Shown: one piece after another, positions 1 through 60,020 of the stretch | How positions within the stretch are numbered: the stretch's first letter is position 1 | How the letters are laid out: the number at the start of each line of letters is the position of its first letter | Origin: Eledone cirrhosa | Lineage: Eukaryota | Direction of reading: 5' to 3' | DNA length: 64,000 nucleotides | NCBI GenBank assembly: GCA_964016885.1 | Contig: OZ024744.1 | Location: forward strand, 136,152,001-136,216,000 | Program-made: the position numbers and the translations under genes | Notes under the pieces: generated by a model | What the model saw: the letters and a program-made list of their open reading frames with translations, nothing else | Databases searched by the model: none | What the model was told of the DNA's origin: nothing

Positions 1-2581
1 GTTTATCTACAGAATAGAAGAAGTGGAGATCATGATAGAAGAAATAACATGAATCCAGAGGAGAGAGAAGTTTATCTGCAGAAAAGAAGTGGAGATCATG
101 ACAGAAGAAATAACAGGAATCCAGAGGAGAGAGAAGTTTATCTACAGAATAGAAGTGGAGATCATGGTAGAAGAAATAACATGAATCCAGAGGAGAGAGA
201 AGTTTATCTACAGAATAAAAGAAGTGGAGATCATGGTAGAAGAAATAACATGAATCCAGAGGAGAGATAAGCTTATCTACAGAATAGAAGTGGAGATCAT
301 GGTAGAAGAAATAACATGAATCCAGAGGAGAGAGAAGTTTATCTACAGAATAGAAGAAGTGGAGATCATGATAGAAGAAATAACATGAATCCAGAGGAGA
401 GAGAAGTTTATCTACAGAATAGAAGAAGTGGAGATCATGACAGAAGAAATAACAGGAATCCAGAGGAGAGAGAAGTTTATCTACAGAATAGAAGTGGAGA
501 TCATGGTAGAAGAAATAACATGAATCCAGAGGAGAGAGAAGCTTATCTACAGGATAGAAGAAGTGGAGATCGTGGTAGAAGAAATAACAGGAATCCAGAG
601 GAGAGAGAAGTTTATCTACAGAATAAAAGAAGTGGAGATCATGGTAGAAGAAATAACATGAATCCAGAGGAGAGAGAAGCTTATCTACAGAATAGAAGTG
701 GAGATCATGGTAGAAGAAATAACATGAATCCAGAGGAGAGAGAAGTTTATCTACAGAATAAAAGAAGTGGAGATCATGGTAGAAGAAATAACATGAATCC
801 AGCGGAGAGAGAAGCTTATCTACAGAATAGAAGTGGAGATCATGGTAGAAGAAATAACATGAATCCAGAGGAGAGAGAAGTATTTCTACAGAATAGAAGA
901 AGTGGAGATCATGGTAGAAGAAATAACATGAATCCAGAGGAGAGAGAGGCTTATCTACAGAATAGAAGTGGAAATCATGATAGAAGAAATAACATGAATC
1001 CAGAGGAGAGAGAAGCTTATCTACAGAATAGAAGTGGAGATCATGATAGAAGAAATAACATGAATCCAGAGGAGAGAGAAGCTTATCTACAGAATAGAAG
1101 TGGAGATCATGATAGAAGAAATAACATGAATCCAGAGGAGAGAGAAGCTTATCTACAGAATAGAAGTGGAGATCATGATAGAAGAAATAACATGAATCCA
1201 GAGGAGAGAGAAGTATTTCTACAGAATAGAAGAAGTGGAGATCATGGTAGGAGAAATAACATGAATCCAGAGGAGAGAGAAGCTTATCTACAGAATAGAA
1301 GAAGTGGAGATCATGATAGAAGAAATAACATGAATCCAGAGGAGAGAGAAGCTTCTCTACAGAATAGAAGTGGAGATCATGGTAGAAGAAATAACATGAA
1401 TCCAGAGGAGAGAGAAGTTTATCTACAGAATAGAAGAAGTGGAGATCATGATAGAAGAAATAACATGAATCCAGAGGAGAGAGAAGTTTATCTACAGAAT
1501 AGAAGAAGTGGAGATCATGGTAGAAGAAATAACAGGAATCCAGAGGAGAGAGAAGTTTATCTACAGAATAGAAGAAGTGGAGATCATGATAGAAGAAATA
1601 ACATGAATCCAGAGGAGAGAGAAGTTTATCTACAGAAAAGAAGTGGAGATCATGACAGAAGAAATAACAGGAATCCAGAGGAGAGAGAAGTTTATCTACA
1701 GAATAGAAGTGGAGATCATGGTAGAAGAAATAACATGAATCCAGAGGAGAGAGAAGTTTATCTACAGAATAGAAGTGGAGATCATGATAGAAGAAATAAC
1801 ATGAATCCAGAGGAGAGAGTAGCTTATCTACAGAATAGAAGAAGTGGAGATCATGATAGAAGAAATAACATGAATCCAGAGGAGAGAGAAGCTTCTCTAC
1901 AGAATAAAAGTGGAGATCATGGTAGAAGAAATAACATGAATCCAGAGGAGAGAGAAGCTTATCTACAGAATAGAAGTGGAGATCATGGTAGAAGAAATAA
2001 CATGAATCCAGAGGAGAGAGAAGTTTATCTACAGAATAGAAGAAGTGGAGATCATGATAGAAGAAATAACATGAATCCAGAGGAGAGAGAAGCTTATCTA
2101 CAGAATAGAAGAAGTGGAGATCATGATAGAAGAAATAACATGAATCCAGAGGAGAGAGAAGCTTCTCTACAGAATAGAAGTGGAGATCATGGTAGAAGAA
2201 ATAACATGAATCCAGAGGAGAGAGAAGCTTATCTACAGAATAGAAGAAGTAGAGATCATGATAGAAGAAATAACATGAATCCAGAGGAGAGAGAAGCTTC
2301 TCTACAGAATAGAAGTGGAGATCATGGTAGAAGAAATAACATGAATCCAGAGGAGAGAGAAGTTTATCTACAGAATAGAAGAAGTGGAGATCATGATAGA
2401 AGAAATAACATGAATCCAGAGGAGAGAGAAGTTTATCTACAGAATAGAAGTGGAGATCATGATAGAAGAAATAACATGAATCCAGAGGAGAGAGAAGCTT
2501 ATCTACAGAATAGAAGAAGTGGAGATCATGATAGAAGAAATAACATGAATCCAGAGGAGAGAGAAGCTTCTCTACAGAATA

Positions 2582-17500: not shown

Positions 17501-20500
17501 TATCTACAGAATAGAAGAAGTGGAGATCATGATAGAAGAAATAACATGAATCCAGAGGAGAGAGAAGCTTCTCTACAGAATAGAAGTGGAGATCATGGTA
17601 GAAGAAATAACATGAATCCAGAGGAGAGAGAAGTTTATCTACAGAATAGAAGAAGTGGAGATCATGATAGAAGAAATAACATGAATCCAGAGGAGAGAGA
17701 AGTTTATCTACAGAATAGAAGAAGTGGAGATCATGGTAGAAGAAATAACAGGAATCCAGAGGAGAGAGAAGTTTATCTACAGAATAGAAGAAGTGGAGAT
17801 CATGATAGAAGAAATAACATGAATCCAGAGGAGAGAGAAGTTTATCTGCAGAAAAGAAGTGGAGATCATGACAGAAGAAATAACAGGAATCCAGAGGAGA
17901 GAGAAGTTTATCTACAGAATAGAAGTGGAGATCATGGTAGAAGAAATAACATGAATCTAGAGGAGAGAGAAGTTTATCTACAGAATAAAAGAAGTGGAGA
18001 TCATGGTAGAAGAAATAACATGAATCCAGAGGAGAGATAAGCTTATCTACAGAATAGAAGTGGAGATCATGGTAGAAGAAATAACATGAATCCAGAGGAG
18101 AGAGAAGTTTATCTACAGAATAGAAGAAGTGGAGATCATGATAGAAGAAATAACATGAATCCAGAGGAGAGAGAAGTTTATCTACAGAATAGAAGAAGTG
18201 GAGATCATGACAGAAGAAATAACAGGAATCCAGAGGAGAGAGAAGTTTATCTACAGAATAGAAGTGGAGATCATGGTAGAAGAAATAACATGAATCCAGA
18301 GGAGAGAGAAGTTTATCTACAGAATAAAAGAAGTGGAGATCATGGTAGAAGAAATAACATGAATCCAGAGGAGAGAGAAGTTTATCTACAGAATAGAAGT
18401 GGAGATCATGGTAGAAGAAATAACATGAATCCAGAGGAGAGAGAAGTTTATCTACAGAATAGAAGAAGTGGAGATCATGATAGAAGAAATAACATGAATC
18501 CAGAGGAGAGAGAAGTTTATCTACAGAATAGAAGAAGTGGAGATCATGATAGAAGAAATAACATGAATCCAGAGGAGAGAGAAGCTTATCTACAGAATAG
18601 AAGAAGTGGAGATCATGATAGAAGAAATAACATGAATCCAGAGGAGAGAGAAGTTTATCTACAGAATAGAAGAAGTGGAGATCATGATAGAAGAAATAAC
18701 ATGAATCCAGAGGAGAGAGAAGTTTATCTACAGAATAGAAGTGGAGATCATGATAGAAGAAATAACATGAATCCAGAGGAGAGAGAAGCTTATCTACAGA
18801 ATAGAAGAAGTGGAGATCATGATAGAAGAAATAACATGAATCCAGAGGAGAGAGAAGCTTCTCTACAGAATAGAAGTGGAGATCATGGTAGAAGAAATAA
18901 CATGAATCCAGAGGAGAGAGAACTTTATCTACAGAATAGAAGTGGAGATCATGGTAGAAGAAATAACATGAATCCAGCGGAGAGAGAAGCTTATCTACAG
19001 AATAGAAGTGGAGATCATGGTAGAAGAAATAACATGAATCCAGAGGAGAGAGAAGTTTATCTACAGAATAAAAGAAGTGGAGATCATGGTAGAAGAAATA
19101 ACATGAATCCAGCGGAGAGAGAAGCTTATCTACAGAATAGAAGTGGAGATCATGGTAGAAGAAATAACATGAATCCAGAGGAGAGAGAAGTATTTCTACA
19201 GAATAGAAGAAGTGGAGATCATGGTAGAAGATATAACATGAATCCAGAGGAGAGAGAAGTTTATCTACAGAATAGAAGAAGTGGAGATCATGACAGAAGA
19301 AATAACAGGAATCCAGAGGAGAGAGAAGTTTATCTACAGAATAGAAGTGGAGATCATGGTAGAAGAAATAACATGAATCCAGAGGAGAGAGAAGTTTATC
19401 TACAGAATAAAAGAAGTGGAGATCATGGTAGAAGAAATAACATGAATCCAGAGGAGAGAGAAGTTTATCTACAGAATAAAAGAAGTGGAGATCATGGTAG
19501 AAGAAATAACATGAATCCAGAGGAGAGAGAGGCTTATCTACAGAATAGAAGTGGAAATCATGATAGAAGAAATAACATGAATCCAGAGGAGAGAGAAGCT
19601 TATCTACAGAATAGAAGTGGAGATCATGATAGAAGAAATAACATGAATCCAGAGGAGAGAGAAGCTTATCTACAGAATAGAAGTGGAGATCATGATAGAA
19701 GAAATAACATGAATCCAGAGGAGAGAGAAGTTTATCTACAGAATAGAAGTGGAGATCATGATAGAAGAAATAACATGAATCCAGAGGAGAGAGTAGCTTA
19801 TCTACAGAATAGAAGAAGTGGAGATCATGATAGAAGAAAAAACATGAATCCAGAGGAGAGAGAAGCTTCTCTACAGAATAGAAGTGGAGATCATGGTAGA
19901 AGAAATAACATGAATCCAGAGGAGAGGGTAGCTTATCTACAGAATAGAAGAAGTGGAGATCATGATAGAAGAAATAACATGAATCCAGAGGAGAGAGAAG
20001 CTTCTCTACAGAATAGAAGTGGAGATCATGGTAGAAGAAATAACATGAATCCAGAGGAGAGAGAAGTTTATCTACAGAATAGAAGAAGTGGAGATCATGA
20101 TAGAAGAAATAACATGAATCCAGAGGAGAGAGAAGTTTATCTACAGAATAGAAGTGGAGATCATGATAGAAGAAATAACATGAATCCAGAGGAGAGAGAA
20201 GCTTATCTACAGAATAGAAGAAGTGGAGATCATGATAGAAGAAATAACATGAATCCAGAGGAGAGAGAAGCTTCTCTACAGAATAGAAGTGGAGATCATG
20301 GTAGAAGAAATAACATGAATCCAGAGGAGAGAGAAGTTTATCTACAGAATAGAAGTGGAGATCATGGTAGAAGAAATAACATGAATCCAGAGGAGAGAGA
20401 AGTTTATCTACAGAATAAAAGAAGTGGAGATCATGGTAGAAGAAATAACATGAATCCAGAGGAGAGAGAAGCTTATCTACAGAATAGAAGTGGAGATCAT

Positions 20501-23500
20501 GGTAGAAGAAATAACATGAATCCAGAGGAGAGAGAAGTTTATCTACAGAATAGAAGAAGTGGAGATCATGATAGAAGAAATAACATGAATCCAGAGGAGA
20601 GAGAAGTTTATCTACAGAATAGAAGAAGTGGAGATCATGACAGAAGAAATAACAGGAATCCAGAGGAGAGAGAAGTTTATCTACAGAATAGAAGTGGAGA
20701 TCATGGTAGAAGAAATAACATGAATCCAGAGGAGAGAGAAGTTTATCTACAGAATAAAAGAAGTGGAGATCATGGTAGAAGAAATAACATGAATCCAGAG
20801 GAGAGAGAAGTTTATCTACAGAATAGAAGTGGAGATCATGGTAGAAGAAATAACATGAATCCAGAGGAGAGAGAAGTTTATCTACAGAATAAAAGAAGTG
20901 GAGATCATGGTAGAAGAAATAACATGAATCCAGAGGAGAGAGAAGTTTATCTACAGAATAGAAGTGGAGATCATGATAGAAGAAATAACATGAATCCAGA
21001 GGAGAGAGTAGCTTATCTACAGAATAGAAGAAGTGGAGATCATGATAGAAGAAATAACATGAATCCAGAGGAGAGAGAAGCTTCTCTACAGAATAGAAGT
21101 GGAGATCATGGCAGAAGAAATAACATGAATCCAGAGGAGAGAGAAGCTTATCTACAGAATAGAAGAAGTAGAGATCATGATAGAAGAAATAACATGAATC
21201 CAGAGGAGAGAGAAGCTTCTCTACAGAATAGAAGTGGAGATCATGGTAGAAGAAATAACATGAATCCAGAGGAGAGAGAAGTTTATCTACAGAATAGAAG
21301 AAGTGGAGATCATGATAGAAGAAATAACATGAATCCAGAGGAGAGAGAAGCTTATCTACAGAATAGAAGTGGAGATCATGATAGAAGAAATAACATGAAT
21401 CCAGAGGAGAGAGTAGCTTATCTACAGAATAGAAGTGGAGATCATGATAGAAGAAATAACATGAATCCAGAGGAGAGAGAAGTATTTCTACAGAATAGAA
21501 GAAGTGGAGATCATGGTAGAAGAAATAACATGAATCCAGAGGAGAGAGAAGTTTATCTACAGAATAGAAGTGGAGATCATGATAGAAGAAATAACATGAA
21601 TCCAGAGGAGAGAGTAGCTTATCTACAGAATAGAAGAAGTGGAGATCATGATATAAGAAAAAACATGAATCCAGAGGAGAGAGAGGCTTCTCTACAGAAT
21701 AGAAGTGGAGATCATGGTAGAAGAAATAACATGAATCCAGAGGAGAGAGAAGCTTATCTACAGAATAGAAGAAGTAGAGATCATGATAGAAGAAATAACA
21801 TGAATCCAGAGGAGAGAGAAGTTTATCTACAGAATAGAAGTGGAGATCATGATAGAAGAAATAACATGAATCCAGAGGAGAGAGAAGCTTATCTACAGAA
21901 TAGAAGAAGTGGAGATCATGATAGAAGAAATAACATGAATCCAGGAGAGAGAGAAGTATTTCTACAGAATAGAAGAAGTGGAGATCATGATAGAAGAAAT
22001 AACATGAATCCAGAGGAGAGAGAAGCTTCTCTACAGAATAGAAGTGGAGATCATGGTAGAAGAAATAACATGAATCCAGAGGAGAGAGAAGCTTATCTAC
22101 AGAATAGAAGAAGTAGAGATCATGATAGAAGAAATAACATGAATCCAGAGGAGAGAGAAGTTTATCTACAGAATAAAAGAAGTGGAGATCATGGTAGAAG
22201 AAATAACATGAATCCAGAGGAGAGAGAAGTTTATCTACAGAATAAAAGAAGTGGAGATCATGGTAGAAGAAATAACATGAATCCAGAGGAGAGATAGGCT
22301 TATCTACAGAATAGAAGTGGAAATCATGATAGAAGAAATAACATGAATCCAGAGGAGATCATGATAGAAGAAATAACATGAATCCAGAGGAGAGAGAAGC
22401 TTATCTACAGAATAGAAGTGGAGATCATGATAGAAGAAATAACATGAATCCAGAGGAGAGAGAAGCTTATCTACAGAATAGAAGTGGAGATCATGATAGA
22501 AGAAATAACATGAATTCAGAGGAGAGAGAAGTATTTCTACAGAATAGAAGAAGTGGAGATCATGGTAGAAGAAATAACATGAATCCAGAGGAGAGAGAAG
22601 TTTATCTACAGAATAGAAGTGGAGATCATGATAGAAGAAATAACATGAATCCAGAGGAGAGAGTAGCTTATCTACAGAATAGAAGAAGTGGAGATCATGA
22701 TAGAAGAAATAACATGAATCCAGAGGAGAGAGAAGCTTCTCTACAGAATAGAAGTGGAGATCATGGTAGAAGAAATAACATGAATCCAGAGGAGAGAGAA
22801 GCTTATCTACAGAACAGAAGAAGTGCAGATCATGATAGAAGAAATAACATGAATCCAGAGGAGAGAGAAGCTTCTCTACAGAATAGAAGTGGAGATCATG
22901 GTAGAAGAAATAACATGAATCCAGAGGAGAGAGAAGTTTATCTACAGAATAGAAGAAGTGGAGATCATGATAGAAGAAATAACATGAATCCAGAGGAGAG
23001 AGAAGTTTATCTACAGAATAGAAGAAGTGGAGATCATGGTAGAAGAAATAACAGGAATCCAGAGGAGAGAGAAGTTTATCTACAGAATAGAAGTGGAGAT
23101 CATGATAGAAGAAATAACATGAATCCAGAGGAGAGAGAAGTTTATCTACAGAATAGAAGAAGTGGAGATCATGATAGAAGAAATAACATGAATCCAGAGG
23201 AGAGAGAAGCTTCTCTACAGAATAGAAGTGGAGATCATGGTAGAAGAAATAACAGGAATCCAGAGGAGAGAGAAGTTTATCTACAGAATAGAAGAAGTGG
23301 AGATCATGATAGAAGAAATAACATGAATCCAGAGGAGAGAGAAGCTTCTCTACAGAATAGAAGTGGAGATCATGGTAGAAGAAATAACATGAATCCAGAG
23401 GAGAGAGAAGTTTATCTACAGAATAGAAGTGGAGATCATGGTAGAAGAAATAACATGAATCAAGAGGAGAGAGAAGTTTATCTACAGAATAGAAGTGGAG

Positions 23501-35500: not shown

Positions 35501-38500
35501 TCATGATAGAAGAAATAACATGAATCCAGAGGAGAGAGTAGCTTATCTACAGAATAGAAGAAGTGGAGATCATGATAGAAGAAATAACATGAATCCAGAG
35601 GAGAGAGAAGCTTCTCTACAGAATAGAAGTGGAGATCATGGTAGAAGAAATAACATGAATCCAGAAGAGAGAGAAGCTTATCTACAGAATAGAAGAAGTG
35701 GAGATCATGATAGAAGAAATAACATGAATCCAGAGGAGAGAGAAGCTTCTCTACAGAATAGAAGTGGAGATCATGGTAGAAGAAATAACATGAATCCAGA
35801 GGAGAGAGAAGTTTATCTACAGAATAGAAGAAGTGGAGATCATGATAGAAGAAATAACATGAATCCAGAGGAGAGAGAAGTTTATCTACAGAATAGAAGA
35901 AGTGGAGATCATGGTAGAAGAAATAACAGGAATCCAGAGGAGAGAGAAGTTTATCTACAGAATAGAAGAAGTGGAGATCATGATAGAAGAAATAACATGA
36001 ATCCAGAGGAGAGAGAAGTTTATCTGCAGAAAAGAAGTGGAGATCATGACAGAAGAAATAACAGGAATCCAGAGGAGAGAGAAGTTTATCTACAGAATAG
36101 AAGTGGAGATCATGGTAGAAGAAATAACATGAATCTAGAGGAGAGAGAAGTTTATCTACAGAATAAAAGAAGTGGAGATCATGGTAGAAGAAATAACATG
36201 AATCCAGAGGAGAGATAAGCTTATCTACAGAATAGAAGTGGAGATCATGGTAGAAGAAATAACATGAATCCAGAGGAGAGAGAAGTTTATCTACAGAATA
36301 GAAGAAGTGGAGATCATGATAGAAGAAATAACATGAATCCAGAGGAGAGAGAAGTTTATCTACAGAATAGAAGAAGTGGAGATCATGACAGAAGAAATAA
36401 CAGGAATCCAGAGGAGAGAGAAGTTTATCTACAGAATAGAAGTGGAGATCATGGTAGAAGAAATAACATGAATCCAGAGGAGAGAGAAGTTTATCTACAG
36501 AATAAAAGAAGTGGAGATCATGGTAGAAGAAATAACATGAATCCAGAGGAGAGAGAAGTTTATCTACAGAATAGAAGTGGAGATCATGGTAGAAGAAATA
36601 ACATGAATCCAGAGGAGAGAGAAGTTTATCTACAGAATAGAAGAAGTGGAGATCATGATAGAAGAAATAACATGAATCCAGAGGAGAGAGAAGTTTATCT
36701 ACAGAATAGAAGAAGTGGAGATCATGATAGAAGAAATAACATGAATCCAGAGGAGAGAGAAGCTTATCTACAGAATAGAAGAAGTGGAGATCATGATAGA
36801 AGAAATAACATGAATCCAGAGGAGAGAGAAGTTTATCTACAGAATAGAAGAAGTGGAGATCATGATAGAAGAAATAACATGAATCCAGAGGAGAGAGAAG
36901 TTTATCTACAGAATAGAAGTGGAGATCATGATAGAAGAAATAACATGAATCCAGAGGAGAGAGAAGCTTATCTACAGAATAGAAGAAGTGGAGATCATGA
37001 TAGAAGAAATAACATGAATCCAGAGGAGAGAGAAGCTTCTCTACAGAATAGAAGTGGAGATCATGGTAGAAGAAATAACATGAATCCAGAGGAGAGAGAA
37101 CTTTATCTACAGAATAGAAGTGGAGATCATGGTAGAAGAAATAACATGAATCCAGCGGAGAGAGAAGCTTATCTACAGAATAGAAGTGGAGATCATGGTA
37201 GAAGAAATAACATGAATCCAGAGGAGAGAGAAGTTTATCTACAGAATAAAAGAAGTGGAGATCATGGTAGAAGAAATAACATGAATCCAGCGGAGAGAGA
37301 AGCTTATCTACAGAATAGAAGTGGAGATCATGGTAGAAGAAATAACATGAATCCAGAGGAGAGAGAAGTATTTCTACAGAATAGAAGAAGTGGAGATCAT
37401 GGTAGAAGATATAACATGAATCCAGAGGAGAGAGAAGTTTATCTACAGAATAGAAGAAGTGGAGATCATGACAGAAGAAATAACAGGAATCCAGAGGAGA
37501 GAGAAGTTTATCTACAGAATAGAAGTGGAGATCATGGTAGAAGAAATAACATGAATCCAGAGGAGAGAGAAGTTTATCTACAGAATAAAAGAAGTGGAGA
37601 TCATGGTAGAAGAAATAACATGAATCCAGAGGAGAGAGAAGTTTATCTACAGAATAAAAGAAGTGGAGATCATGGTAGAAGAAATAACATGAATCCAGAG
37701 GAGAGAGAGGCTTATCTACAGAATAGAAGTGGAAATCATGATAGAAGAAATAACATGAATCCAGAGGAGAGAGAAGCTTATCTACAGAATAGAAGTGGAG
37801 ATCATGATAGAAGAAATAACATGAATCCAGAGGAGAGAGAAGCTTATCTACAGAATAGAAGTGGAGATCATGATAGAAGAAATAACATGAATCCAGAGGA
37901 GAGAGAAGTTTATCTACAGAATAGAAGTGGAGATCATGATAGAAGAAATAACATGAATCCAGAGGAGAGAGTAGCTTATCTACAGAATAGAAGAAGTGGA
38001 GATCATGATAGAAGAAAAAACATGAATCCAGAGGAGAGAGAAGCTTCTCTACAGAATAGAAGTGGAGATCATGGTAGAAGAAATAACATGAATCCAGAGG
38101 AGAGGGTAGCTTATCTACAGAATAGAAGAAGTGGAGATCATGATAGAAGAAATAACATGAATCCAGAGGAGAGAGAAGCTTCTCTACAGAATAGAAGTGG
38201 AGATCATGGTAGAAGAAATAACATGAATCCAGAGGAGAGAGAAGTTTATCTACAGAATAGAAGAAGTGGAGATCATGATAGAAGAAATAACATGAATCCA
38301 GAGGAGAGAGAAGTTTATCTACAGAATAGAAGTGGAGATCATGATAGAAGAAATAACATGAATCCAGAGGAGAGAGAAGCTTATCTACAGAATAGAAGAA
38401 GTGGAGATCATGATAGAAGAAATAACATGAATCCAGAGGAGAGAGAAGCTTCTCTACAGAATAGAAGTGGAGATCATGGTAGAAGAAATAACATGAATCC

Positions 38501-39003
38501 AGAGGAGAGAGAAGTTTATCTACAGAATAGAAGTGGAGATCATGGTAGAAGAAATAACATGAATCCAGAGGAGAGAGAAGTTTATCTACAGAATAAAAGA
38601 AGTGGAGATCATGGTAGAAGAAATAACATGAATCCAGAGGAGAGAGAAGCTTATCTACAGAATAGAAGTGGAGATCATGGTAGAAGAAATAACATGAATC
38701 CAGAGGAGAGAGAAGTTTATCTACAGAATAGAAGAAGTGGAGATCATGATAGAAGAAATAACATGAATCCAGAGGAGAGAGAAGTTTATCTACAGAATAG
38801 AAGAAGTGGAGATCATGACAGAAGAAATAACAGGAATCCAGAGGAGAGAGAAGTTTATCTACAGAATAGAAGTGGAGATCATGGTAGAAGAAATAACATG
38901 AATCCAGAGGAGAGAGAAGTTTATCTACAGAATAAAAGAAGTGGAGATCATGGTAGAAGAAATAACATGAATCCAGAGGAGAGAGAAGTTTATCTACAGA
39001 ATA
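2582..39003 (+). repeat. Tandem duplication with an 18,178-bp period (copies ~2.6-20.8 kb and ~20.8-39.0 kb)
   Basis: Nine ORF starts recur at exactly +18178 (4200/22378, 7271/25449, 8282/26460, 9604/27782, 10615/28793, 12916/31094, 15753/33931, 17075/35253, 18086/36264). Rare variants recur at the same offset. Boundaries are approximate. Confidence 0.95.
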
Positions 39004-42000
39004 AAAGAAGTGGAGATCATGGTAGAAGAAATAACATGAATCCAGAGGAGAGAGAAGTTTATCTACAGAATAGAAGAAGTGGAGATCATGACAGAAGAAA
39101 TAACAGGAATCCAGAGGAGAGAGAAGTTTATCTACAGAATAAAAGAAGTGGAGATCATGGTAGAAGAAATAACATGAATCCAGAGGAGAGAGAAGTTTAT
39201 CTACAGAATAAAAGAAGTGGAGATCATGGTAGAAGAAATAACATGAATCCAGAGGAGAGAGAAGCTTATCTACAGAATAGAAGTGGAAATCATGATAGAA
39301 GAAATAACATGAATCCAGAGGAGATCATGATAGAAGAAATAACATGAATCCAGAGGAGAGAGAAGCTTATCTACAGAATAGAAGTGGAGATCATGATAGA
39401 AGAAATAACATGAATCCAGAGGAGAGAGAAGCTTATCTACAGAATAGAAGTGGAGATCATGATAGAAGAAATAACATGAATCCAGAGGAGAGAGAAGTAT
39501 TTCTACAGAATAGAAGAAGTGGAGATCATGGTAGAAGAAATAACATGAATCCAGAGGAGAGAGAAGTTTATCTACAGAATAGAAGTGGAGATCATGATAG
39601 AAGAAATAACATGAATCCAGAGGAGAGAGTAGCTTATCTACAGAATAGAAGAAGTGGAGATCATGATAGAAGAAATAACATGAATCCAGAGGAGAGAGAA
39701 GCTTCTCTACAGAATAGAAGTGGAGATCATGGTAGAAGAAATAACATGAATCCAGAGGAGAGAGAAGCTTATCTACAGAATAGAAGAAGTGCAGATCATG
39801 ATAGAAGAAATAACATGAATCCAGAGGAGAGAGAAGCTTCTCTACAGAATAGAAGTGGAGATCATGGTAGAAGAAATAACATGAATCCAGAGGAGAGAGA
39901 AGTTTATCTACAGAATAGAAGAAGTGGAGATCATGATAGAAGAAATAACATGAATCCAGAGGAGAGAGAAGTTTATCTACAGAATAGAAGAAGTGGAGAT
40001 CATGGTAGAAGAAATAACAGGAATCCAGAGGAGAGAGAAGTTTATCTACAGAATAGAAGTGGAGATCATGGTAGAAGAAATAACATGAATCCAGAGGAGA
40101 GAGAAGTTTATCTACAGAATAGAAGAAGTGGAGATCATGATAGAAGAAATAACATGAATCCAGAGGAGAGAGAAGTTTATCTACAGAATAGAAGTGGAGA
40201 TCATGATAGAAGAAATAACATGAATCCAGAGGAGAGAGAAGTTTATCTACAGAATAGAAGTGGAGATCATGATAGAAGAAATAACATGAATCCAGAGGAG
40301 AGAGAAGCTTATCTACAGAATAGAAGAAGTGGAGATCATGATAGAAGAAAAAACATGAATCCAGAGGAGAGAGAAGTTTATCTACAGAATAGAAGAAGTG
40401 GAGATCATGATAGAAGAAATAACATGAATCCAGAGGAGAGAGAAGTTTATCTACAGAATAGAAGTGGAGATCATGGTAGAAGAAATAACATGAATCCAGA
40501 GGAGAGAGAAGTTTATCTACAGAATAGAAGAAGTGGAGATCATGATAGAAGAAATAACATGAATCCAGAGGAGAGAGAAGTTTATCTACAGAATAGAAGA
40601 AGTGGAGATCATGATAGAAGAAATAACATGAATCCAGAGGAGAGAGAAGCTTATCTACAGAATAGAAGAAGTGGAGATCATGATAGAAGAAATAACATGA
40701 ATCCAGAGGAGAGAGAAGTTTATCTACAGAATAGAAGGAGTGGAGATCATGATAGAAGAAATAATATGAATCCAGAGGAGAGAGAAGTTTATCTACAGAA
40801 TAGAAGTGGAGATCATGATAGAAGAAATAACATGAATCCAGAGGAGAGAGAAGTTTATCTACAGAATAGAAGAAGTGGAGATCATGATAGAAGAAATAAC
40901 ATGAATCCAGAGGAGAGAGAAGTTTATCTACAGAATAGAAGAAGTGGAGATCATGGTAGAAGAAATAACAGGAATCCAGAGGAGAGAGAAGTTTATCTAC
41001 AGAATAGAAGAAGTGGAGATCATGATAGAAGAAATAACATGAATCCAGAGGAGAGAGAAGTTTATCTGCAGAAAAGAAGTGGAGATCATGACAGAAGAAA
41101 TAACAGGAATCCAGAGGAGAGAGAAGTTTATCTACAGAATAGAAGTGGAGATCATGGTAGAAGAAATAACATGAATCTAGAGGAGAGAGAAGTTTATCTA
41201 CAGAATAAAAGAAGTGGAGATCATGGTAGAAGAAATAACATGAATCCAGAGGAGAGATAAGCTTATCTACAGAATAGAAGTGGAGATCATGGTAGAAGAA
41301 ATAACATGAATCCAGAGGAGAGAGAAGTTTATCTACAGAATAGAAGAAGTGGAGATCATGATAGAAGAAATAACATGAATCCAGAGGAGAGAGAAGTTTA
41401 TCTACAGAATAGAAGAAGTGGAGATCATGACAGAAGAAATAACAGGAATCCAGAGGAGAGAGAAGTTTATCTACAGAATAGAAGTGGAGATCATGGTAGA
41501 AGAAATAACATGAATCCAGAGGAGAGAGAAGTTTATCTACAGAATAAAAGAAGTGGAGATCATGGTAGAAGAAATAACATGAATCCAGAGGAGAGAGAAG
41601 TTTATCTACAGAATAGAAGTGGAGATCATGGTAGAAGAAATAACATGAATCCAGAGGAGAGAGAAGTTTATCTACAGAATAGAAGAAGTGGAGATCATGA
41701 TAGAAGAAATAACATGAATCCAGAGGAGAGAGAAGTTTATCTACAGAATAGAAGAAGTGGAGATCATGATAGAAGAAATAACATGAATCCAGAGGAGAGA
41801 GAAGCTTATCTACAGAATAGAAGAAGTGGAGATCATGATAGAAGAAATAACATGAATCCAGAGGAGAGAGAAGTTTATCTACAGAATAGAAGAAGTGGAG
41901 ATCATGATAGAAGAAATAACATGAATCCAGAGGAGAGAGAAGTTTATCTACAGAATAGAAGTGGAGATCATGATAGAAGAAATAACATGAATCCAGAGGA

Positions 42001-45000
42001 GAGAGAAGCTTATCTACAGAATAGAAGAAGTGGAGATCATGATAGAAGAAATAACATGAATCCAGAGGAGAGAGAAGCTTCTCTACAGAATAGAAGTGGA
42101 GATCATGGTAGAAGAAATAACATGAATCCAGAGGAGAGAGAACTTTATCTACAGAATAGAAGTGGAGATCATGGTAGAAGAAATAACATGAATCCAGCGG
42201 AGAGAGAAGCTTATCTACAGAATAGAAGTGGAGATCATGGTAGAAGAAATAACATGAATCCAGAGGAGAGAGAAGTTTATCTACAGAATAAAAGAAGTGG
42301 AGATCATGGTAGAAGAAATAACATGAATCCAGCGGAGAGAGAAGCTTATCTACAGAATAGAAGTGGAGATCATGGTAGAAGAAATAACATGAATCCAGAG
42401 GAGAGAGAAGTATTTCTACAGAATAGAAGAAGTGGAGATCATGGTAGAAGATATAACATGAATCCAGAGGAGAGAGAAGTTTATCTACAGAATAGAAGAA
42501 GTGGAGATCATGACAGAAGAAATAACAGGAATCCAGAGGAGAGAGAAGTTTATCTACAGAATAGAAGTGGAGATCATGGTAGAAGAAATAACATGAATCC
42601 AGAGGAGAGAGAAGTTTATCTACAGAATAAAAGAAGTGGAGATCATGGTAGAAGAAATAACATGAATCCAGAGGAGAGAGAAGTTTATCTACAGAATAAA
42701 AGAAGTGGAGATCATGGTAGAAGAAATAACATGAATCCAGAGGAGAGAGAGGCTTATCTACAGAATAGAAGTGGAAATCATGATAGAAGAAATAACATGA
42801 ATCCAGAGGAGAGAGAAGCTTATCTACAGAATAGAAGTGGAGATCATGATAGAAGAAATAACATGAATCCAGAGGAGAGAGAAGCTTATCTACAGAATAG
42901 AAGTGGAGATCATGATAGAAGAAATAACATGAATCCAGAGGAGAGAGAAGTTTATCTACAGAATAGAAGTGGAGATCATGATAGAAGAAATAACATGAAT
43001 CCAGAGGAGAGAGTAGCTTATCTACAGAATAGAAGAAGTGGAGATCATGATAGAAGAAAAAACATGAATCCAGAGGAGAGAGAAGCTTCTCTACAGAATA
43101 GAAGTGGAGATCATGGTAGAAGAAATAACATGAATCCAGAGGAGAGGGTAGCTTATCTACAGAATAGAAGAAGTGGAGATCATGATAGAAGAAATAACAT
43201 GAATCCAGAGGAGAGAGAAGCTTCTCTACAGAATAGAAGTGGAGATCATGGTAGAAGAAATAACATGAATCCAGAGGAGAGAGAAGTTTATCTACAGAAT
43301 AGAAGAAGTGGAGATCATGATAGAAGAAATAACATGAATCCAGAGGAGAGAGAAGTTTATCTACAGAATAGAAGTGGAGATCATGATAGAAGAAATAACA
43401 TGAATCCAGAGGAGAGAGAAGCTTATCTACAGAATAGAAGAAGTGGAGATCATGATAGAAGAAATAACATGAATCCAGAGGAGAGAGAAGCTTCTCTACA
43501 GAATAGAAGTGGAGATCATGGTAGAAGAAATAACATGAATCCAGAGGAGAGAGAAGTTTATCTACAGAATAGAAGTGGAGATCATGGTAGAAGAAATAAC
43601 ATGAATCCAGAGGAGAGAGAAGTTTATCTACAGAATAAAAGAAGTGGAGATCATGGTAGAAGAAATAACATGAATCCAGAGGAGAGAGAAGCTTATCTAC
43701 AGAATAGAAGTGGAGATCATGGTAGAAGAAATAACATGAATCCAGAGGAGAGAGAAGTTTATCTACAGAATAGAAGAAGTGGAGATCATGATAGAAGAAA
43801 TAACATGAATCCAGAGGAGAGAGAAGTTTATCTACAGAATAGAAGAAGTGGAGATCATGACAGAAGAAATAACAGGAATCCAGAGGAGAGAGAAGTTTAT
43901 CTACAGAATAGAAGTGGAGATCATGGTAGAAGAAATAACATGAATCCAGAGGAGAGAGAAGTTTATCTACAGAATAAAAGAAGTGGAGATCATGGTAGAA
44001 GAAATAACATGAATCCAGAGGAGAGAGAAGTTTATCTACAGAATAAAAGAAGTGGAGATCATGGTAGAAGAAATAACATGAATCCAGAGGAGAGAGAAGT
44101 TTATCTACAGAATAGAAGAAGTGGAGATCATGACAGAAGAAATAACAGGAATCCAGAGGAGAGAGAAGTTTATCTACAGAATAAAAGAAGTGGAGATCAT
44201 GGTAGAAGAAATAACATGAATCCAGAGGAGAGAGAAGTTTATCTACAGAATAAAAGAAGTGGAGATCATGGTAGAAGAAATAACATGAATCCAGAGGAGA
44301 GAGAAGCTTATCTACAGAATAGAAGTGGAAATCATGATAGAAGAAATAACATGAATCCAGAGGAGATCATGATAGAAGAAATAACATGAATCCAGAGGAG
44401 AGAGAAGCTTATCTACAGAATAGAAGTGGAGATCATGATAGAAGAAATAACATGAATCCAGAGGAGAGAGAAGCTTATCTACAGAATAGAAGTGGAGATC
44501 ATGATAGAAGAAATAACATGAATCCAGAGGAGAGAGAAGTATTTCTACAGAATAGAAGAAGTGGAGATCATGGTAGAAGAAATAACATGAATCCAGAGGA
44601 GAGAGAAGTTTATCTACAGAATAGAAGTGGAGATCATGATAGAAGAAATAACATGAATCCAGAGGAGAGAGTAGCTTATCTACAGAATAGAAGAAGTGGA
44701 GATCATGATAGAAGAAATAACATGAATCCAGAGGAGAGAGAAGCTTCTCTACAGAATAGAAGTGGAGATCATGGTAGAAGAAATAACATGAATCCAGAGG
44801 AGAGAGAAGCTTATCTACAGAATAGAAGAAGTGCAGATCATGATAGAAGAAATAACATGAATCCAGAGGAGAGAGAAGCTTCTCTACAGAATAGAAGTGG
44901 AGATCATGGTAGAAGAAATAACATGAATCCAGAGGAGAGAGAAGTTTATCTACAGAATAGAAGAAGTGGAGATCATGATAGAAGAAATAACATGAATCCA

Positions 45001-45890
45001 GAGGAGAGAGAAGTTTATCTACAGAATAGAAGAAGTGGAGATCATGGTAGAAGAAATAACAGGAATCCAGAGGAGAGAGAAGTTTATCTACAGAATAGAA
45101 GTGGAGATCATGGTAGAAGAAATAACATGAATCCAGAGGAGAGAGAAGTTTATCTACAGAATAGAAGAAGTGGAGATCATGATAGAAGAAATAACATGAA
45201 TCCAGAGGAGAGAGAAGTTTATCTACAGAATAGAAGTGGAGATCATGATAGAAGAAATAACATGAATCCAGAGGAGAGAGAAGTTTATCTACAGAATAGA
45301 AGTGGAGATCATGATAGAAGAAATAACATGAATCCAGAGGAGAGAGAAGCTTATCTACAGAATAGAAGAAGTGGAGATCATGATAGAAGAAAAAACATGA
45401 ATCCAGAGGAGAGAGAAGTTTATCTACAGAATAGAAGAAGTGGAGATCATGATAGAAGAAATAACATGAATCCAGAGGAGAGAGAAGTTTATCTACAGAA
45501 TAGAAGTGGAGATCATGGTAGAAGAAATAACATGAATCCAGAGGAGAGAGAAGTTTATCTACAGAATAGAAGAAGTGGAGATCATGATAGAAGAAATAAC
45601 ATGAATCCAGAGGAGAGAGAAGTTTATCTACAGAATAGAAGAAGTGGAGATCATGATAGAAGAAATAACATGAATCCAGAGGAGAGAGAAGCTTATCTAC
45701 AGAATAGAAGAAGTGGAGATCATGATAGAAGAAATAACATGAATCCAGAGGAGAGAGAAGTTTATCTACAGAATAGAAGGAGTGGAGATCATGATAGAAG
45801 AAATAATATGAATCCAGAGGAGAGAGAAGTTTATCTACAGAATAGAAGTGGAGATCATGATAGAAGAAATAACATGAATCCAGAGGAGAG
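35778..45890 (+). repeat. Tandem duplication with a 5,042-bp period
   Basis: ORF starts 36264/41306 and 39344/44386 are 5042 apart. The rare variants aatcta (36136/41178), agaagg and aataat recur at +5042. Boundaries are approximate. Confidence 0.93.
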
Positions 45891-46143
45891 ACAAGCTTAT
45901 CTACAGAATAGAAGAAGTGGAGATCATGATAGAAGAAATAACATGAATCCAGAGGAGAGAGAAGCTTCTCTACAGAATAGAAGTGGAGATCATGGTAGAA
46001 GAAATAACATGAATCCAGAGGAGAGAGAAGTTTATCTACAGAATAGAAGTGGAGATCATGGTAGAAGAAATAACATGAATCCAGAGGAGAGAGAAGTTTA
46101 TCTACAGAATTAAAGAAGTGGAGATCATGATAGAAGAAATAAC

Positions 46144-49100
46144 ATGAATCCAGAGGAGAGAGAAGTTTATCTACAGAATAGAAGAAGTGGAGATCATGAT
46201 AGAAGAAATAACATGAATCCAGAGGAGAGAGAAGTTTATCTACAGAATAGAAGTGGAGATCATGATAGAAGAAATAACATGAATCCAGAGGAGAGAGAAG
46301 CTTATCTACAGAATAGAAGAAGTGGAGATCATGATAGAAGAAATAACATGAATCCAGAGGAGAGAGAAGCTTCTCTACAGAATAGAAGTGGAGATCATGG
46401 TAGAAGAAATAACATGAATCCAGAGGAGAGAGAACTTTATCTACAGAATAGAAGTGGAGATCATGGTAGAAGAAATAACATGAATCCAGCGGAGAGAGAA
46501 GCTTATCTACAGAATAGAAGTGGAGATCATGGTAGAAGAAATAACATGAATCCAGAGGAGAGAGAAGTTTATCTACAGAATAAAAGAAGTGGAGATCATG
46601 GTAGAAGAAATAACATGAATCCAGAGGAGAGAGAAGTTTATCTACAGAATAAAAGAAGTGGAGATCATGGTAGAAGAAATAACATGAATCCAGAGGAGAG
46701 AGAAGCTTATCTACAGAATAGAAGTGGAAATCATGATAGAAGAAATAACATGAATCCAGAGGAGAGAGAAGCTTATCTACAGAATAGAAGTGGAGATCAT
46801 GATAGAAGAAATAACATGAATCCAGAGGAGAGAGAAGCTTATCTACAGAATAGAAGTGGAGATCATGATAGAAGAAATAACATGAATCCAGAGGAGAGAG
46901 TAGCTTATCTACAGAATAGAAGTGGAGATCATGGTAGAAGAAATAACATGAATCCAGAGGAGAGAGAAGTTTATCTACAGAATAGAAGAAGTGGAGATCA
47001 TGATAGAAGAAATAACATGAATCCAGAGGAGAGAGAAGTATTTCTACAGAATAGAAGAAGTGGAGATCATGATAGAAGAAATAACATGAATCCAGAGGAG
47101 AGAGAAGCTTCTCTACAGAATAGAAGTGGAGATCATGGTAGAAGAAATAACATGAATCCAGAGGAGAGAGAAGTTTATCTACAGAATAAAAGAAGTGGAG
47201 ATCATGGTAGAAGAAATAACATGAATCCAGAGGAGAGAGAAGTATTTCTACAGAATAGAAGTGGAGATCATGATAGAAGAAATAACATGAATCCAGAAGA
47301 GAGAGAAGCTTATCTACAGAATAGAAGAAGTGGAGATCACGATAGAAGAAATAACATGAATCCAGAGGAGAGAGAAGCTTCTCTACAGAATAGAAGTGGA
47401 GATCATGGTAGAAGAAATAACATGAATCCAGAGGAGAGAGAAGTTTATCTACAGAATAGAAGTGGAGATCATGGTAGAAGAAATAACATGAATCCAGAGG
47501 AGAGAGAAGTTTATCTACAGAATAAAAGAAGTGGAGATCATGGTAGAAGAAATAACATGAATCCAGAGGAGAGAGAAGCTTATCTACAGAATAGAAGTGG
47601 AGATCATGGTAGAAGAAATAACATGAATCCAGAGGAGAGAGAAGTTTATCTACAGAATAGAAGAAGTGGAGATCATGATAGAAGAAATAACATGAATCCA
47701 GAGGAGAGAGAAGTTTATCTACAGAATAGAAGAAGTGGAGATCATGACAGAAGAAATAACAGGAATCCAGAGGAGAGAGAAGTTTATCTACAGAATAGAA
47801 GTGGAGATCATGGTAGAAGAAATAACATGAATCCAGAGGAGAGAGAAGTTGATCTACAGAATAAAAGAAGTGGAGATCATGGTAGAAGAAATAACATGAA
47901 TCCAGAGGAGAGAGAAGTTTATCTACAGAATAAAAGAAGTGGAGATCATGGTAGAAGAAATAACATGAATCCAGAGGAGAGAGAAGTTTATCCACAGAAT
48001 AGAAGAAGTGGAGATCATGACAGAAGAAATAACAGGAATCCAGAGGAGAGAGAAGTTTATCTACAGAATAGAAGTGGAGATCATGGTAGAAGAAATAACA
48101 TGAATCCAGAGGAGAGAGAAGTTTATCTACAGAATAAAAGAAGTGGAGATCATGGTAGAAGAAATAACATGAATCCAGAGGAGAGAGAAGTTTATCTACA
48201 GAATAAAAGAAGTGGAGATCATGGTAGAAGAAATAACATGAATCCAGAGGAGAGAGAAGCTTCTCTACAGAATAGAAGTGGAGATCATGGTAGAAGAAAT
48301 AACATGAATCCAGAGGAGAGAGAAGTTTATCTACAGAATAGAAGAAGTGGAGATCATGATAGAAGAAATAACATGAATCCAGAGGAGAGAGAAGTTTATC
48401 TACAGAATAGAAGAAGTGGAGATCATGACAGAAGAAATAACAGGAATCCAGAGGAGAGAGAAGCTTATCTACAGAATAAAAGAAGTGGGGATCATGGTAG
48501 AAGAAATAACATGAATCCAGAGGAGAGAGAAGTTTATCTACAGAATAAAAGAAGTGGAGATCATGGTAGAAGAAATAACATGAATCCAGAGGAGAGAGAG
48601 GCTTATCTACAGAATAGAAGTGGAGATCATGATAGAAGAAATAACATGAATCCAGAGGAGAGAGAAGCTTATCTACAGAATAGAAGTGGAGATCATGATA
48701 GACGAAATAACATGAATCCAGAGGAGAGAGAAGCTTATCTACAGAATAGAAGTGGAGATCATGGTAGAAGAAATAACATGAATCCAGAGGAGAGAGAAGC
48801 TTATCTACAGAATAGAAGTGGAGATCATGATAGAAGAAATAACATGAATCCAGAGGAGAGAGAAGCTTATCTACAGAATAGAAGTGGAGATCATGATAGA
48901 AGAAATAACATGAATCCAGAGGAGAGAGAAGTTTATCTACAGAATAGAAGTGGAGATCATGGTAGAAGAAATAACATGAATCCAGAGGAGAGAGAAGTTT
49001 ATCTACAGAATAGAAGAAGTGGAGATCATGGTAGAAGAAATAACATGAATCCAGAGGAGAGAGAAGTTTATCTACAGAATAGAAGTGGAGATCATGATAG

Positions 49101-49206
49101 AAGAAATAACATGAATCCAGAGGAAAGAGAGGCTTATCTACAGAATAGAAGTGGAGATCATGGTAGAAGAAATGACATGAATCTAGAGGTTGAGAAACAA
49201 AGTTGA
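46144..49206 (+). CDS. Terminal open repeat ORF (1020 aa of STPR-like repeats); relic of the Helitron RepHel N-terminus, expression unknown
   Basis: Uninterrupted frame up to the array edge. Upstream array segments share this reading but are broken by recurrent stops and frameshifts. Confidence 0.2.
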   Translation: MNPEEREVYLQNRRSGDHDRRNNMNPEEREVYLQNRSGDHDRRNNMNPEEREAYLQNRRSGDHDRRNNMNPEEREASLQNRSGDHGRRNNMNPEERELYLQNRSGDHGRRNNMNPAEREAYLQNRSGDHGRRNNMNPEEREVYLQNKRSGDHGRRNNMNPEEREVYLQNKRSGDHGRRNNMNPEEREAYLQNRSGNHDRRNNMNPEEREAYLQNRSGDHDRRNNMNPEEREAYLQNRSGDHDRRNNMNPEERVAYLQNRSGDHGRRNNMNPEEREVYLQNRRSGDHDRRNNMNPEEREVFLQNRRSGDHDRRNNMNPEEREASLQNRSGDHGRRNNMNPEEREVYLQNKRSGDHGRRNNMNPEEREVFLQNRSGDHDRRNNMNPEEREAYLQNRRSGDHDRRNNMNPEEREASLQNRSGDHGRRNNMNPEEREVYLQNRSGDHGRRNNMNPEEREVYLQNKRSGDHGRRNNMNPEEREAYLQNRSGDHGRRNNMNPEEREVYLQNRRSGDHDRRNNMNPEEREVYLQNRRSGDHDRRNNRNPEEREVYLQNRSGDHGRRNNMNPEEREVDLQNKRSGDHGRRNNMNPEEREVYLQNKRSGDHGRRNNMNPEEREVYPQNRRSGDHDRRNNRNPEEREVYLQNRSGDHGRRNNMNPEEREVYLQNKRSGDHGRRNNMNPEEREVYLQNKRSGDHGRRNNMNPEEREASLQNRSGDHGRRNNMNPEEREVYLQNRRSGDHDRRNNMNPEEREVYLQNRRSGDHDRRNNRNPEEREAYLQNKRSGDHGRRNNMNPEEREVYLQNKRSGDHGRRNNMNPEEREAYLQNRSGDHDRRNNMNPEEREAYLQNRSGDHDRRNNMNPEEREAYLQNRSGDHGRRNNMNPEEREAYLQNRSGDHDRRNNMNPEEREAYLQNRSGDHDRRNNMNPEEREVYLQNRSGDHGRRNNMNPEEREVYLQNRRSGDHGRRNNMNPEEREVYLQNRSGDHDRRNNMNPEEREAYLQNRSGDHGRRNDMNLEVEKQS

Positions 49207-49253
49207 ACAGCGACGAAATGCCATAATTGAAGAGCAGCCTTTGAGCAGGGGCA

Positions 49254-49358
49254 ATGAACAGTGTAAGAGTTAAAGTGATACCTCAAAACGAATCCACCCA
49301 TGGCCGCAAAAGGGGAATCCCCTTTACTAGAAACATTGTATATAGGGAAGTGCTTTAA
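49254..49358 (+). pseudogene. Remnant of the Helitron RepHel (Pif1-like helicase) extreme C-terminus
   Basis: Manual translation gives MNSVRVKVIPQNESTHGRKRGIPFTRNIVYREVL*. T(K/R)N(I/V)VYxEVL followed by a stop is the characteristic end of Helitron helicases. It is too short to appear in the ORF track. Confidence 0.85.
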
Positions 49359-49524
49359 AGGATGTTTTTTATGTGTACTTTTATGAAATTAATTTTAAAT
49401 AAACTTACATTATTATACATAAAATAAAGGAAAATATAATTTTTTATTCAGCAAAATACTGCATATCAAATAACTTTGATTAACTGATAAATATTCATTG
49501 GACAAGATTTAAATTTCAAAGATT

Positions 49525-49554
49525 ATCCGTGAATTTTTTCACTGGTCCAGCTAG
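49525..49554 (+). terminator. Helitron 3' terminus: subterminal hairpin plus CTAG
   Basis: atccgtgaa-tttt-ttcactggt forms a 9-bp stem with one mismatch and one G:T pair, followed by ccag and CTAG (49551-49554). The next base is A rather than the canonical target-site T. Confidence 0.75.
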
Positions 49555-49575
49555 AATATATTAATACGTATAAAT

Positions 49576-55500: not shown

Positions 55501-55560
55501 CAAAAATACCCAGTACACACTGTAAAGTGGTTATGTAGGTGTCATAACAAAAAGTACCCT
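49576..55560 (+). repeat. 48-bp satellite A (~125 copies)
   Basis: Unit cacaacaaaaagtacccagtacacactgtaaagtggtcatgtaggtgt, with frequent 1-4 bp indels. Internal periods of 239 bp and 868 bp are visible. Confidence 0.98.
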
Positions 55561-55800
55561 CATGACCACTTTATAGTGTGTACTGGGTACTTTTTGTTGA
55601 CACCTACATGACCACTTTACAGTGTGTACTGGGTACTTTTTGTTGTGACACCTACATGACCTCTTTACAGTGTGTACTGGGTCCTTTTTGTTGTGACACC
55701 TACTAGATCACTTTACAGTGTACTGGGTACTTTTTGTTGTGACACCTACCAGACCACTTTACAGTTTACTGGGTACTTTTTGTTGTGACACCTACACGAC
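55561..55800 (-). repeat. About 5 copies of satellite A in inverted orientation
   Basis: catgaccactttacagtgtgtactgggtactttttgttgtgacaccta is the reverse complement of the unit. The switch is abrupt, at aagtaccct|catgaccac. Confidence 0.97.
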
Positions 55801-56279
55801 TTATATTTAAGTAACAGCCGTACTAAGAGTGCGAAATGAAATTTCATTCTTTCCATTTATCCTTTTCGGTACGCCCAGCCGACTAACTCACTCGATATGC
55901 AAATTAGGCTGCTCAGCCGTTAATATGCATAAGGAAATTATATACTTTCAAACGTTCATTCGACTGACAGGAAAGTATATAGTGCTGATGACAGCTAATA
56001 AGCTAGAAATTAGTTCATCGTTCCTTTGTCAGTGTTGAACAAAATGGCAACGATGGTTGCCGAACACTGTACGGCTTAATTTGGGCTGTTTGTTTACAAA
56101 CAAACCGAACATTATAATAAATGTTCGGTAAACCCATATGTACATATATATATGTGTGCATGTATATATATACATACTACTGTACGTCTGTATACATATA
56201 CATATGTACGTATACATACTTATATTTAAGTATCAGCCGTACTAAGAGTGAGAAATGAAATTTCATTTTTTCCATTTAT
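55799..56279. repeat. 62-bp direct repeat pair, 419 bp apart
   Basis: 55799-55860 and 56218-56279 differ at 3 positions. Both contain the palindrome aatgaaatttcatt. Confidence 0.9.
55976..56022 (+). ncRNA. Degenerate type I hammerhead-ribozyme-like motif (candidate)
   Basis: CTGATGA (55985-55991), then c-agct-aata-agct-a, then GAAA (56006-56009), then ttagttc. Stems I and III are imperfect. Confidence 0.3.
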
Positions 56280-56286
56280 ATATATA

Positions 56287-56931: not shown

Positions 56932-56937
56932 TTTTTT

Positions 56938-56942
<5 letters not shown>

Positions 56943-56977
<35 letters not shown>
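56943..56977. repeat. (TA)n microsatellite
   Basis: Perfect TA run between the LINE fragment and the SINE tail. Confidence 0.97.
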
Positions 56978-56978
<1 letters not shown>

Positions 56979-56980
<2 letters not shown>

Positions 56981-57161: not shown

Positions 57162-57259
57162 ATATTGAGTAATAGCAGGTGTAGTGTGCATATGGATATT
57201 ATATGCAAATATATACGCATACAGATATATGTAAATTGTAAAGTAAATTGACAATATCT

Positions 57260-59966: not shown

Positions 59967-60020
59967 GTTATACTCTACTTTACCCTCCCATTTCCAAATT
60001 TATCCAACACTGCTATCATG

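Follow-up and report, generated by a model that had tools for sequence, protein, structure and literature searches.

We analysed a 64,000-nucleotide stretch of the Eledone cirrhosa genome (contig OZ024744.1, positions 136,152,001 to 136,216,000 of the forward strand; hereafter the window), most of which is taken up by a tandem array of 69- and 66-bp units whose plus strand encodes an STPR-like repeat with methionine at position 1 and tyrosine at position 9 (M1/Y9-type; residues are numbered within the unit). The array spans positions 1 to 49176 and is unbounded on the left, continuing past the window edge rather than beginning at position 316, where a first-pass annotation of the sequence had placed its start. 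Cutting at one fixed anchor yields 732 whole units between 49 and 49176. Of these, 376 measure 69 bp and 344 measure 66 bp, the rest being ten units of 35 bp and two of 65 bp; the 69- and 66-bp classes are referred to together as full units (n = 720). The 23-residue translation given in that annotation for a 69-bp unit was right, although it applies to the 376 units of that length, the 66-bp units encoding 22 amino acids; the main length variant thus keeps the frame. The exact peptide described earlier occurs in 105 of the 720 full units, M1 and Y9 occur together in 535, and an ATG opens 669 of the 732 units, in line with the earlier remark that nearly every monomer supplies one. In all 376 of the 69-bp units, position 1 is M or R, position 2 is N and position 9 is Y, F or D, and glycine stands at position 16 in 351. 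The repeat is indeed highly charged, as had been claimed, yet its net charge is near zero (0 or +1 in 362 of the 376 69-bp units).

The array has the make-up of a satellite, being at least 49 kb long and homogenised, with a mean pairwise difference between units of 3.7%, 71 full-length haplotypes and higher-order periods of 2.3, 5.0 and 18.2 kb. The largest period corresponds to a tandem block duplication at 2581 to 39003 on the plus strand (period 18,178 bp, two mismatches in 18,245 bp), which carries stops and frameshifting units. A second block duplication, at 35777 to 45891 on the same strand, has a period of 5,042 bp and is exact over 5,073 bp; a third measures about 2.3 kb, and nested older duplications bear shared derived variants. 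Applying the neutral rate quoted in the available text of PMC13282606, the 18.2-kb duplication would be some tens of thousands of years old, provided that it does not stem from misassembly.

Long open frames abound in the array. We counted 23 ATG-started frames of more than 300 amino acids, seven of them of at least 1,000, the longest (18086 to 22297, plus strand) encoding 1,403; the open stretches of 1,000–1,400 amino acids reported at first pass were therefore found again. The final open frame (46144 to 49206, plus strand; 1,020 amino acids) reaches its stop via a frameshift at the end of the array. On the minus strand, open stretches reach 2,028 amino acids, exceeding the plus-strand maximum, and a neighbouring 48-bp array, described below, is likewise open on both strands. 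When units were shuffled, 11,451 of 20,000 had at least two stop-free frames. The long open frames are thus at chance level because the unit length is a multiple of three. Stop-free 69-bp units run for five at most, as at 38898–39242, and only 12 of 241 such runs contain four or more. Coding on the minus strand was rejected, as this strand gave no Pfam match and no synonymous excess. For annotation the lesson is one of caution, since kilobase frames can arise on both strands from unit length alone.

The origin of the plus-strand frame emerged from its protein relatives. Searched against 2,249 longer candidate proteins, a six-unit query retrieved two matches, both of them Octopus BTB proteins (the O. 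vulgaris 'Ken-like' protein P0003 and the O. bimaculoides protein P0004; expectation values, E, of 5e-25 and 2e-24). When 1,429 proteins closer in length to the query were searched, two more matches emerged, O. bimaculoides LOC106877253 (P0010, E 5.5e-5) and an unnamed protein, P0011. P0010 is the N-terminus of a Helitron transposase, matching the Helraiser transposase (PDB 7lcc) at E 3.5e-25. In both P0010 and P0011 a few M1-type repeats are followed by a distinct terminal repeat and then by a cysteine motif. The N-termini of P0003 and P0004 comprise three M1/Y9 repeats plus this terminal repeat, after which come repeats of an E1/R9 type and a BTB domain; the two proteins are 78% identical to P0010 over 51 amino acids, and their resemblance to the Helitron stops at the same place. 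The M1/Y9 repeat was found in all of the closest named relatives (P0003, P0004 and P0010). The pairing of M1 with Y9, described at first pass as co-varied, is therefore real, and it is inherited, since intact relatives carry the same repeat: it is their property and is older than the array.

The Helitron-like segment falls within residues 1–120 of P0003 and P0004; their paralogues (P0005–P0009) lack it or have THAP in its place. Fusions of Octopus BTB proteins to transposon-derived DNA-binding domains, THAP and CENPB, are reported in the accessible part of PMC10027918, and the N-terminus of P0003 and P0004 looks like a Helitron case akin to these BTB-THAP and BTB-CENPB joins. From the sequence comparison, an Octopus host BTB gene seems to have captured the DNA-binding repeat of a Helitron, a direction suggested by the alignment with Helraiser.

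The right-hand end of the array ties it to this ancestry. Its closing units are identical to the last repeat of P0010 over 15 of 15 residues. They are followed, at 49177 to 49243 on the plus strand, by the ancestral protein's terminal repeat, interrupted by a frameshifting deletion of 23 bp after 49189; past the deletion, non-repeated sequence reads on as the terminal repeat in another frame (11 of 18 residues shared with P0010), with a score that none of 2,000 shuffles reached. The same post-array frame matched the terminal repeats of all five relatives tested, again with none of 2,000 shuffles doing so for any of them. Detectable protein homology ends at 49244 to 49268 (plus strand), where a weak four-residue match to P0011 appears in a third frame (reached in 54 of 2,000 shuffles), and searches by tblastn with P0010, P0003 and P0004 over the 14.8 kb downstream detected no more Helitron N-terminal or BTB sequence. 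The array end thus matches P0010, which in turn matches Helraiser, a chain of homology consistent with a relic of the HLE1 class of Helitron. An autonomous element is not present in the window: with the frameshift, and with homology gone after 49262, there is no intact Rep-helicase frame. Taken together, these comparisons indicate that the array frame is descended from the N-terminus of an Octopus Helitron transposase, and is not a chance frame.

Further downstream, a perfect 7-bp hairpin followed by CTAG (49309 to 49330, plus strand) is a candidate Helitron 3' end. Two of the 161 plus-strand CTRR sites in the tail, this one among them, passed the hairpin scan. In Helraiser, the hairpin lies 11 nt before the element end, as given in the consulted portion of PMC4778049. 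A bulged hairpin with CTAG at about 49527–49554 on the plus strand, just 5' of the 48-bp array, was considered as another 3' end and rejected, having failed both hairpin scans; 6 of 200 shuffles equalled it in a window picked after the fact.

The relationship to STPR proteins is more distant. The silkworm FMBP-1 repeat given in the first-pass annotation agrees with PDB 5d23, and E4, E5, R6, L10, R20 and N23 are identical in register (6 of 23 positions). According to the available text of PMC4856987, STPRs are strictly 23-residue repeats defined by Glu1, Thr/Ser2 and Arg9, with DNA contacts at R6, R9, L10, M13, S14, Y16, A17, R20 and L21; each repeat folds as a two-residue linker and a helix of about 21 residues, the repeats zig-zag, and AT-rich DNA is bound through the major groove. 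By comparison, 23 residues are encoded by 376 of the 732 units and 22 by 344, all 376 of the 69-bp units depart from Glu1, Thr/Ser2 and Arg9, and three of the nine FMBP-1 contact residues are kept. Direct profile searches, a check proposed at first pass, were negative: none of four plus-strand array pieces matched Pfam PF21107, in a search whose filters drop most matches above E 0.1, nor did P0003 or P0004. The above-cut-off Pfam matches that the array did give (DUF7167, DUF3140, TFIIE-A_C and RecT) were discarded as sums of short repeated matches. A profile built from M1-type repeats found Helraiser (E 1.2e-5) and no FMBP-1 at E up to 10, and FMBP-1 was likewise not found with P0004 residues 1–204 or P0008 as queries. 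In a sequence search of the PDB, six units matched engineered protein A repeats (E 3e-5) ahead of FMBP-1 (E 0.51), and three units did not retrieve FMBP-1; we set the protein A match aside as a generic helix N-cap motif.

Indirect evidence for kinship came from the relatives and from predicted structure. A search among cluster representatives gave 31 matches, of which 30 were scanned; PF21107 appeared at E of 0.05 or below in 10 and above cut-off in five, and unrelated repeat proteins topped the match list. In two proteins, P0032 and P0018, a hydrophobic-first unit is mixed with E1 units in a single register. An alignment-guided model of five 69-bp units consists of helices of about 20 residues joined by short linkers, and in a comparison with 48,161 chains it placed 5d23 first (Z 7.8, root-mean-square deviation 2.2 Å over 64 residues), the sole chain at Z 5 or above, with a Z score that lies below the tool's caution level for helical repeats. 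FMBP-1 was hence the best fold match in the structure prediction, a check also proposed at first pass, but the geometry may be borrowed, because the alignment behind the model held five Pfam-positive STPR proteins. A Foldseek search with the array model returned no match. The whole-protein model of P0004 was of low overall confidence (mean predicted local distance difference test score 45) and showed helices interrupted where the repeats join, and a fold search with it returned long helices only and was uninformative. The ESM Atlas listed STPR clusters at 0.82–0.84, which we treat as leads only. On a helix-propensity scale, the C-terminal half of the array unit is less helix-prone (0.50) than that of 29 of 32 units from relatives (0.22–0.48). 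We conclude from sequence and predicted structure that the unit is STPR-related by descent and lies outside the family by its defining residues. The STPR-like character proposed at first pass is thus backed indirectly, through the Pfam matches of the relatives and the fold rank, and not by direct profiles.

On balance, we favour as the probable account of the locus a satellite, today most likely untranslated, that arose when the 23-codon STPR-like repeat from the N-terminus of an HLE1 Helitron transposase expanded out of control. The starting point is visible in Octopus, where Helitron transposases open with a few M1/Y9 repeats leading to the terminal repeat and the cysteine motif. At the Eledone locus the terminal repeat was kept with its 23-bp deletion and homology is lost about 70 bp on; the remainder of the transposase would have been deleted, a loss that may have extended as far as the 3' hairpin of the element. 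A single unit may then have been amplified by slippage and unequal exchange, perhaps aided by rolling-circle copying; its first 12 residues are as in the terminal repeat and its last residues as in an internal repeat. The 66-bp unit came from a 3-bp loss in an AGA run, and the 2.3-, 5.0- and 18.2-kb block duplications multiplied all of this along with the stops and frameshifts.

Several observations weigh against this account. The 5' end of the array falls outside the window, and the candidate 3' end at 49309–49330 is atypical (its spacer is 1 nt and the next base is A, not T) and weakly above chance, 78 of 1,000 local shuffles giving a match. The array end aligns nearly as well with the BTB N-termini (scores of 56 and 55) as with the Helitron protein P0010 (58). 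Moreover, substitutions in the array are not spread evenly with respect to the M1/Y9 frame. Leaving out the 35- and 65-bp units (n = 12), we counted 56 distinct substitutions from the consensus, of which 19 are synonymous in that frame, against 13.3–14.5 expected under three matched nulls (P 0.010–0.011 when the mutation spectrum is kept; 0.033 and 0.004 with neighbour context). With the terminal unit omitted the count is 18 of 54 (P 0.018). The excess is limited to the M1/Y9 frame, being absent from the other five frames and from every frame of the 48-bp array, of which 99 of 123 units served as a neutral control. Of the possible synonymous transitions 16 of 23 were seen, against 17 of 46 non-synonymous ones (Fisher P 0.010; transition-only ratio about 0.39). 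Rare variants, too, are enriched (13 of 37 synonymous, P 0.044), an outcome not expected had the array evolved entirely neutrally.

We prefer to read this excess as a residue of past translation, left by constraint on the repeats during early expansion, or as the product of exchange with coding relatives. The part of it found among rare variants is not fully explained in this way, and with hundreds of units present, any selection acting on a single one should be weak. Rare variants unique to 39340–49176 are synonymous in 6 of 11 cases and those further 5' in 6 of 21, a post hoc split of small numbers.

The near-equality of the alignment scores bears on a different and rather unlikely origin, in which the first segment of an Octopus 'Ken-like' BTB gene, itself derived from a Helitron, was copied, expanded and since broken to give the array, with the other exons lying outside the window. 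P0003 and P0004 open with these repeats and diverge from the Helitron at the same place; units with R13 and units with K13 correspond to two separate repeats in these proteins; and their paralogues swap N-termini, one of them having a THAP domain. The post-array frame also ends in N-E-Q with a phase-1 donor-like GT at 49263–49264, resembling the N-E junction of P0003 and P0004, whose exon boundaries are deduced from the proteins only. This GT fits six of nine consensus positions, 11 further sites up to 49340 score as highly, and the array is out of frame with it because of the 23-bp deletion. Residue 8 of the array is A, as in P0010, and not T, as in the BTB proteins, and the next 14.8 kb hold no E1/R9 repeat or BTB sequence.

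A further challenge to an untranslated satellite is the idea put forward at first pass, that part of the array is, or until recently was, translated into a long poly-repeat protein with STPR-like DNA binding. This we regard as unlikely too, marginally more so than the BTB origin. In a eukaryote, any translation would most likely involve the first frame downstream of a 5' promoter, and not all 23 frames. The frame-specific synonymous excess speaks for it, as do the synonymous rare variants beyond 39.3 kb (6 of 11, chosen post hoc), the in-frame main length variant and the superposition of the model on the FMBP-1 STPR. Against it, two nonsense changes and two frameshifting deletions, present in 25 of the 732 units, sit inside the near-exact block duplications and have been amplified with them; stops are not depleted (2 seen against 2.3 expected, a weak test with little power); and the 344 units of 22 amino acids leave four or more successive 23-residue units in only the 12 runs counted above. 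The few DNA contacts kept, the prevalent Gly16 and the near-zero net charge point the same way. Three protein searches, each word-limited or clustered, found no protein built from the array repeat; repeats are often masked before annotation, so repeat proteins can escape databases. The terminal 23-bp deletion also cuts the array off from whatever coding sequence followed. In its full form, with the repeat amplified several hundredfold under protein constraint and at least one frame of 300–1,400 amino acids yielding a modular protein that tracks the major groove, alone or spliced to a BTB dimerisation domain in the manner of the intact relatives, the proposal seems to us doubtful. The peptide spanning N22 to R6 is common to the array and the intact BTB and Helitron proteins; array-specific residues lie at positions 14–19. 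The giant poly-STPR proteins envisaged at first pass thus lack support, as stops and frameshifts have been multiplied with the array, half of the units fall off the 23-residue register and direct profiles are negative. The long reading frames seem to be a legacy of the ancestral gene and not in use, although the modest trace of protein-level constraint gives some translation a small probability.

Another concern touches the size of the array and not its origin, namely that its length or its largest duplications have been inflated by assembly error. A doubling of 18,245 bp with two mismatches, and of 5,073 bp with none, is what such an error might leave, but the 18-kb copies do differ at two sites, and the nested older duplications and 71 full-length haplotypes render this improbable. 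Finally, mere chance resemblance, in which a purine-rich satellite happened to have an open frame and a generic helix N-cap motif, as might be suspected from the higher rank of protein A repeats, the unrelated proteins topping the representative search and the chance-level frames, is very improbable and largely refuted by the 15 of 15 residues shared with the Octopus Helitron protein P0010 and the homology continuing in unique sequence beyond the array. A prokaryotic origin was rejected as well, a 22-base stretch of the unit having no exact match in a collection of bacterial and archaeal genomes.

The remainder of the window contains other repeats and remnants. A separate, broken Helitron transposase fragment lies 11.7 kb downstream of the array and on the same strand (60974 to 61381, in two frames); it matches Helraiser residues 859–897 (E 6.2e-5) and 815–851 (E 0.022). 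The 48-bp tandem array occupies 49588–55800, with about 124 copies that give way immediately to some five copies in inverted orientation at 55561–55800, and a second 48-bp array occupies 63687–64000. The 48-bp unit may have originated from a dispersed stretch at about 56420–56530, to which it looks similar by eye. A 40-bp tandem array of 32 copies lies at 58521–59810. Broken frames at 56668–57807 (minus strand), 60412–60957 (plus) and 61433–62100 (plus) resemble pieces of long interspersed nuclear element (LINE) retrotransposon proteins, though Pfam gave nothing for the two pieces scanned within these ranges, and a stretch at about 57040–57160 resembles a common Octopus short interspersed repeat. 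No Rfam match was found in 48000–64000.

At this locus a satellite unit can be followed back to a specific coding sequence, that of the DNA-binding repeat in a Helitron transposase, with the junction to ancestral sequence still readable. Moreover, one Helitron repeat seems to have met two fates, as the N-terminus of a BTB host protein in two Octopus species and as a satellite, because the same Helitron segment begins the BTB proteins of both species. Were part of the array translated after all, its product would be an STPR-type protein exceeding the described ones, of three to seven repeats, some hundredfold in length. The setting has precedents: the available parts of PMC7492417 and PMC12628747 describe mollusc satellites carried or seeded by Helitron-like elements, and those of PMC12628747 describe Helitron-borne arrays that give rise to satellites, review help from rolling-circle replication and list satellites derived from gag or pol domains. 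For O. vulgaris, the text available from PMC13282606 gives 84 Helitron families, recently active Helitrons and 80 satellite families. Within a partial coverage of the literature, we found no report of this satellite, or of any from a Helitron transposase coding repeat; it may stand in the O. vulgaris Zenodo repeat library.

Compared with known systems, the array resembles the STPR family (PF21107; silkworm FMBP-1, 5d23) in its 23-residue period, in E4-E5-R6, L10, R20 and N23, and in a predicted short linker followed by a long helix. It differs in having E1, T/S2 and R9 replaced, in the 22-residue length of half of its units and in comprising hundreds of units, against three to seven. Among Helitron-like elements, STPRs are almost confined to HLE1, according to the accessible text of PMC11417382, and with the N-terminal repeats of HLE1 transposases (P0010; Helraiser, 7lcc) the array shares the same repeat, the same terminal repeat and the same order. 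There, two or three repeats precede the rest of the protein, whereas the array has more than 730 and is without cysteine motif, Rep or helicase; its unit also has S15/G16 and often one residue fewer. The Octopus BTB proteins, by contrast, are intact, are annotated in two species and continue into E1/R9 repeats and a BTB domain, features that do not occur in the window. The closest parallels are satellites borne by Helitrons and Helentrons, in which, as described in the parts of the literature available, a tandem array has grown in a non-autonomous rolling-circle element, with element sequence at one side. In the oyster Cg_HINE (PMC7492417), Cg170 and the Drosophila DINE-TR1 (the latter two via PMC12628747), the arrays are central repeats of non-autonomous elements. 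Judged by those partial descriptions, the Eledone array differs from all three in that its unit is the transposase's own coding repeat, with frame and homology kept.

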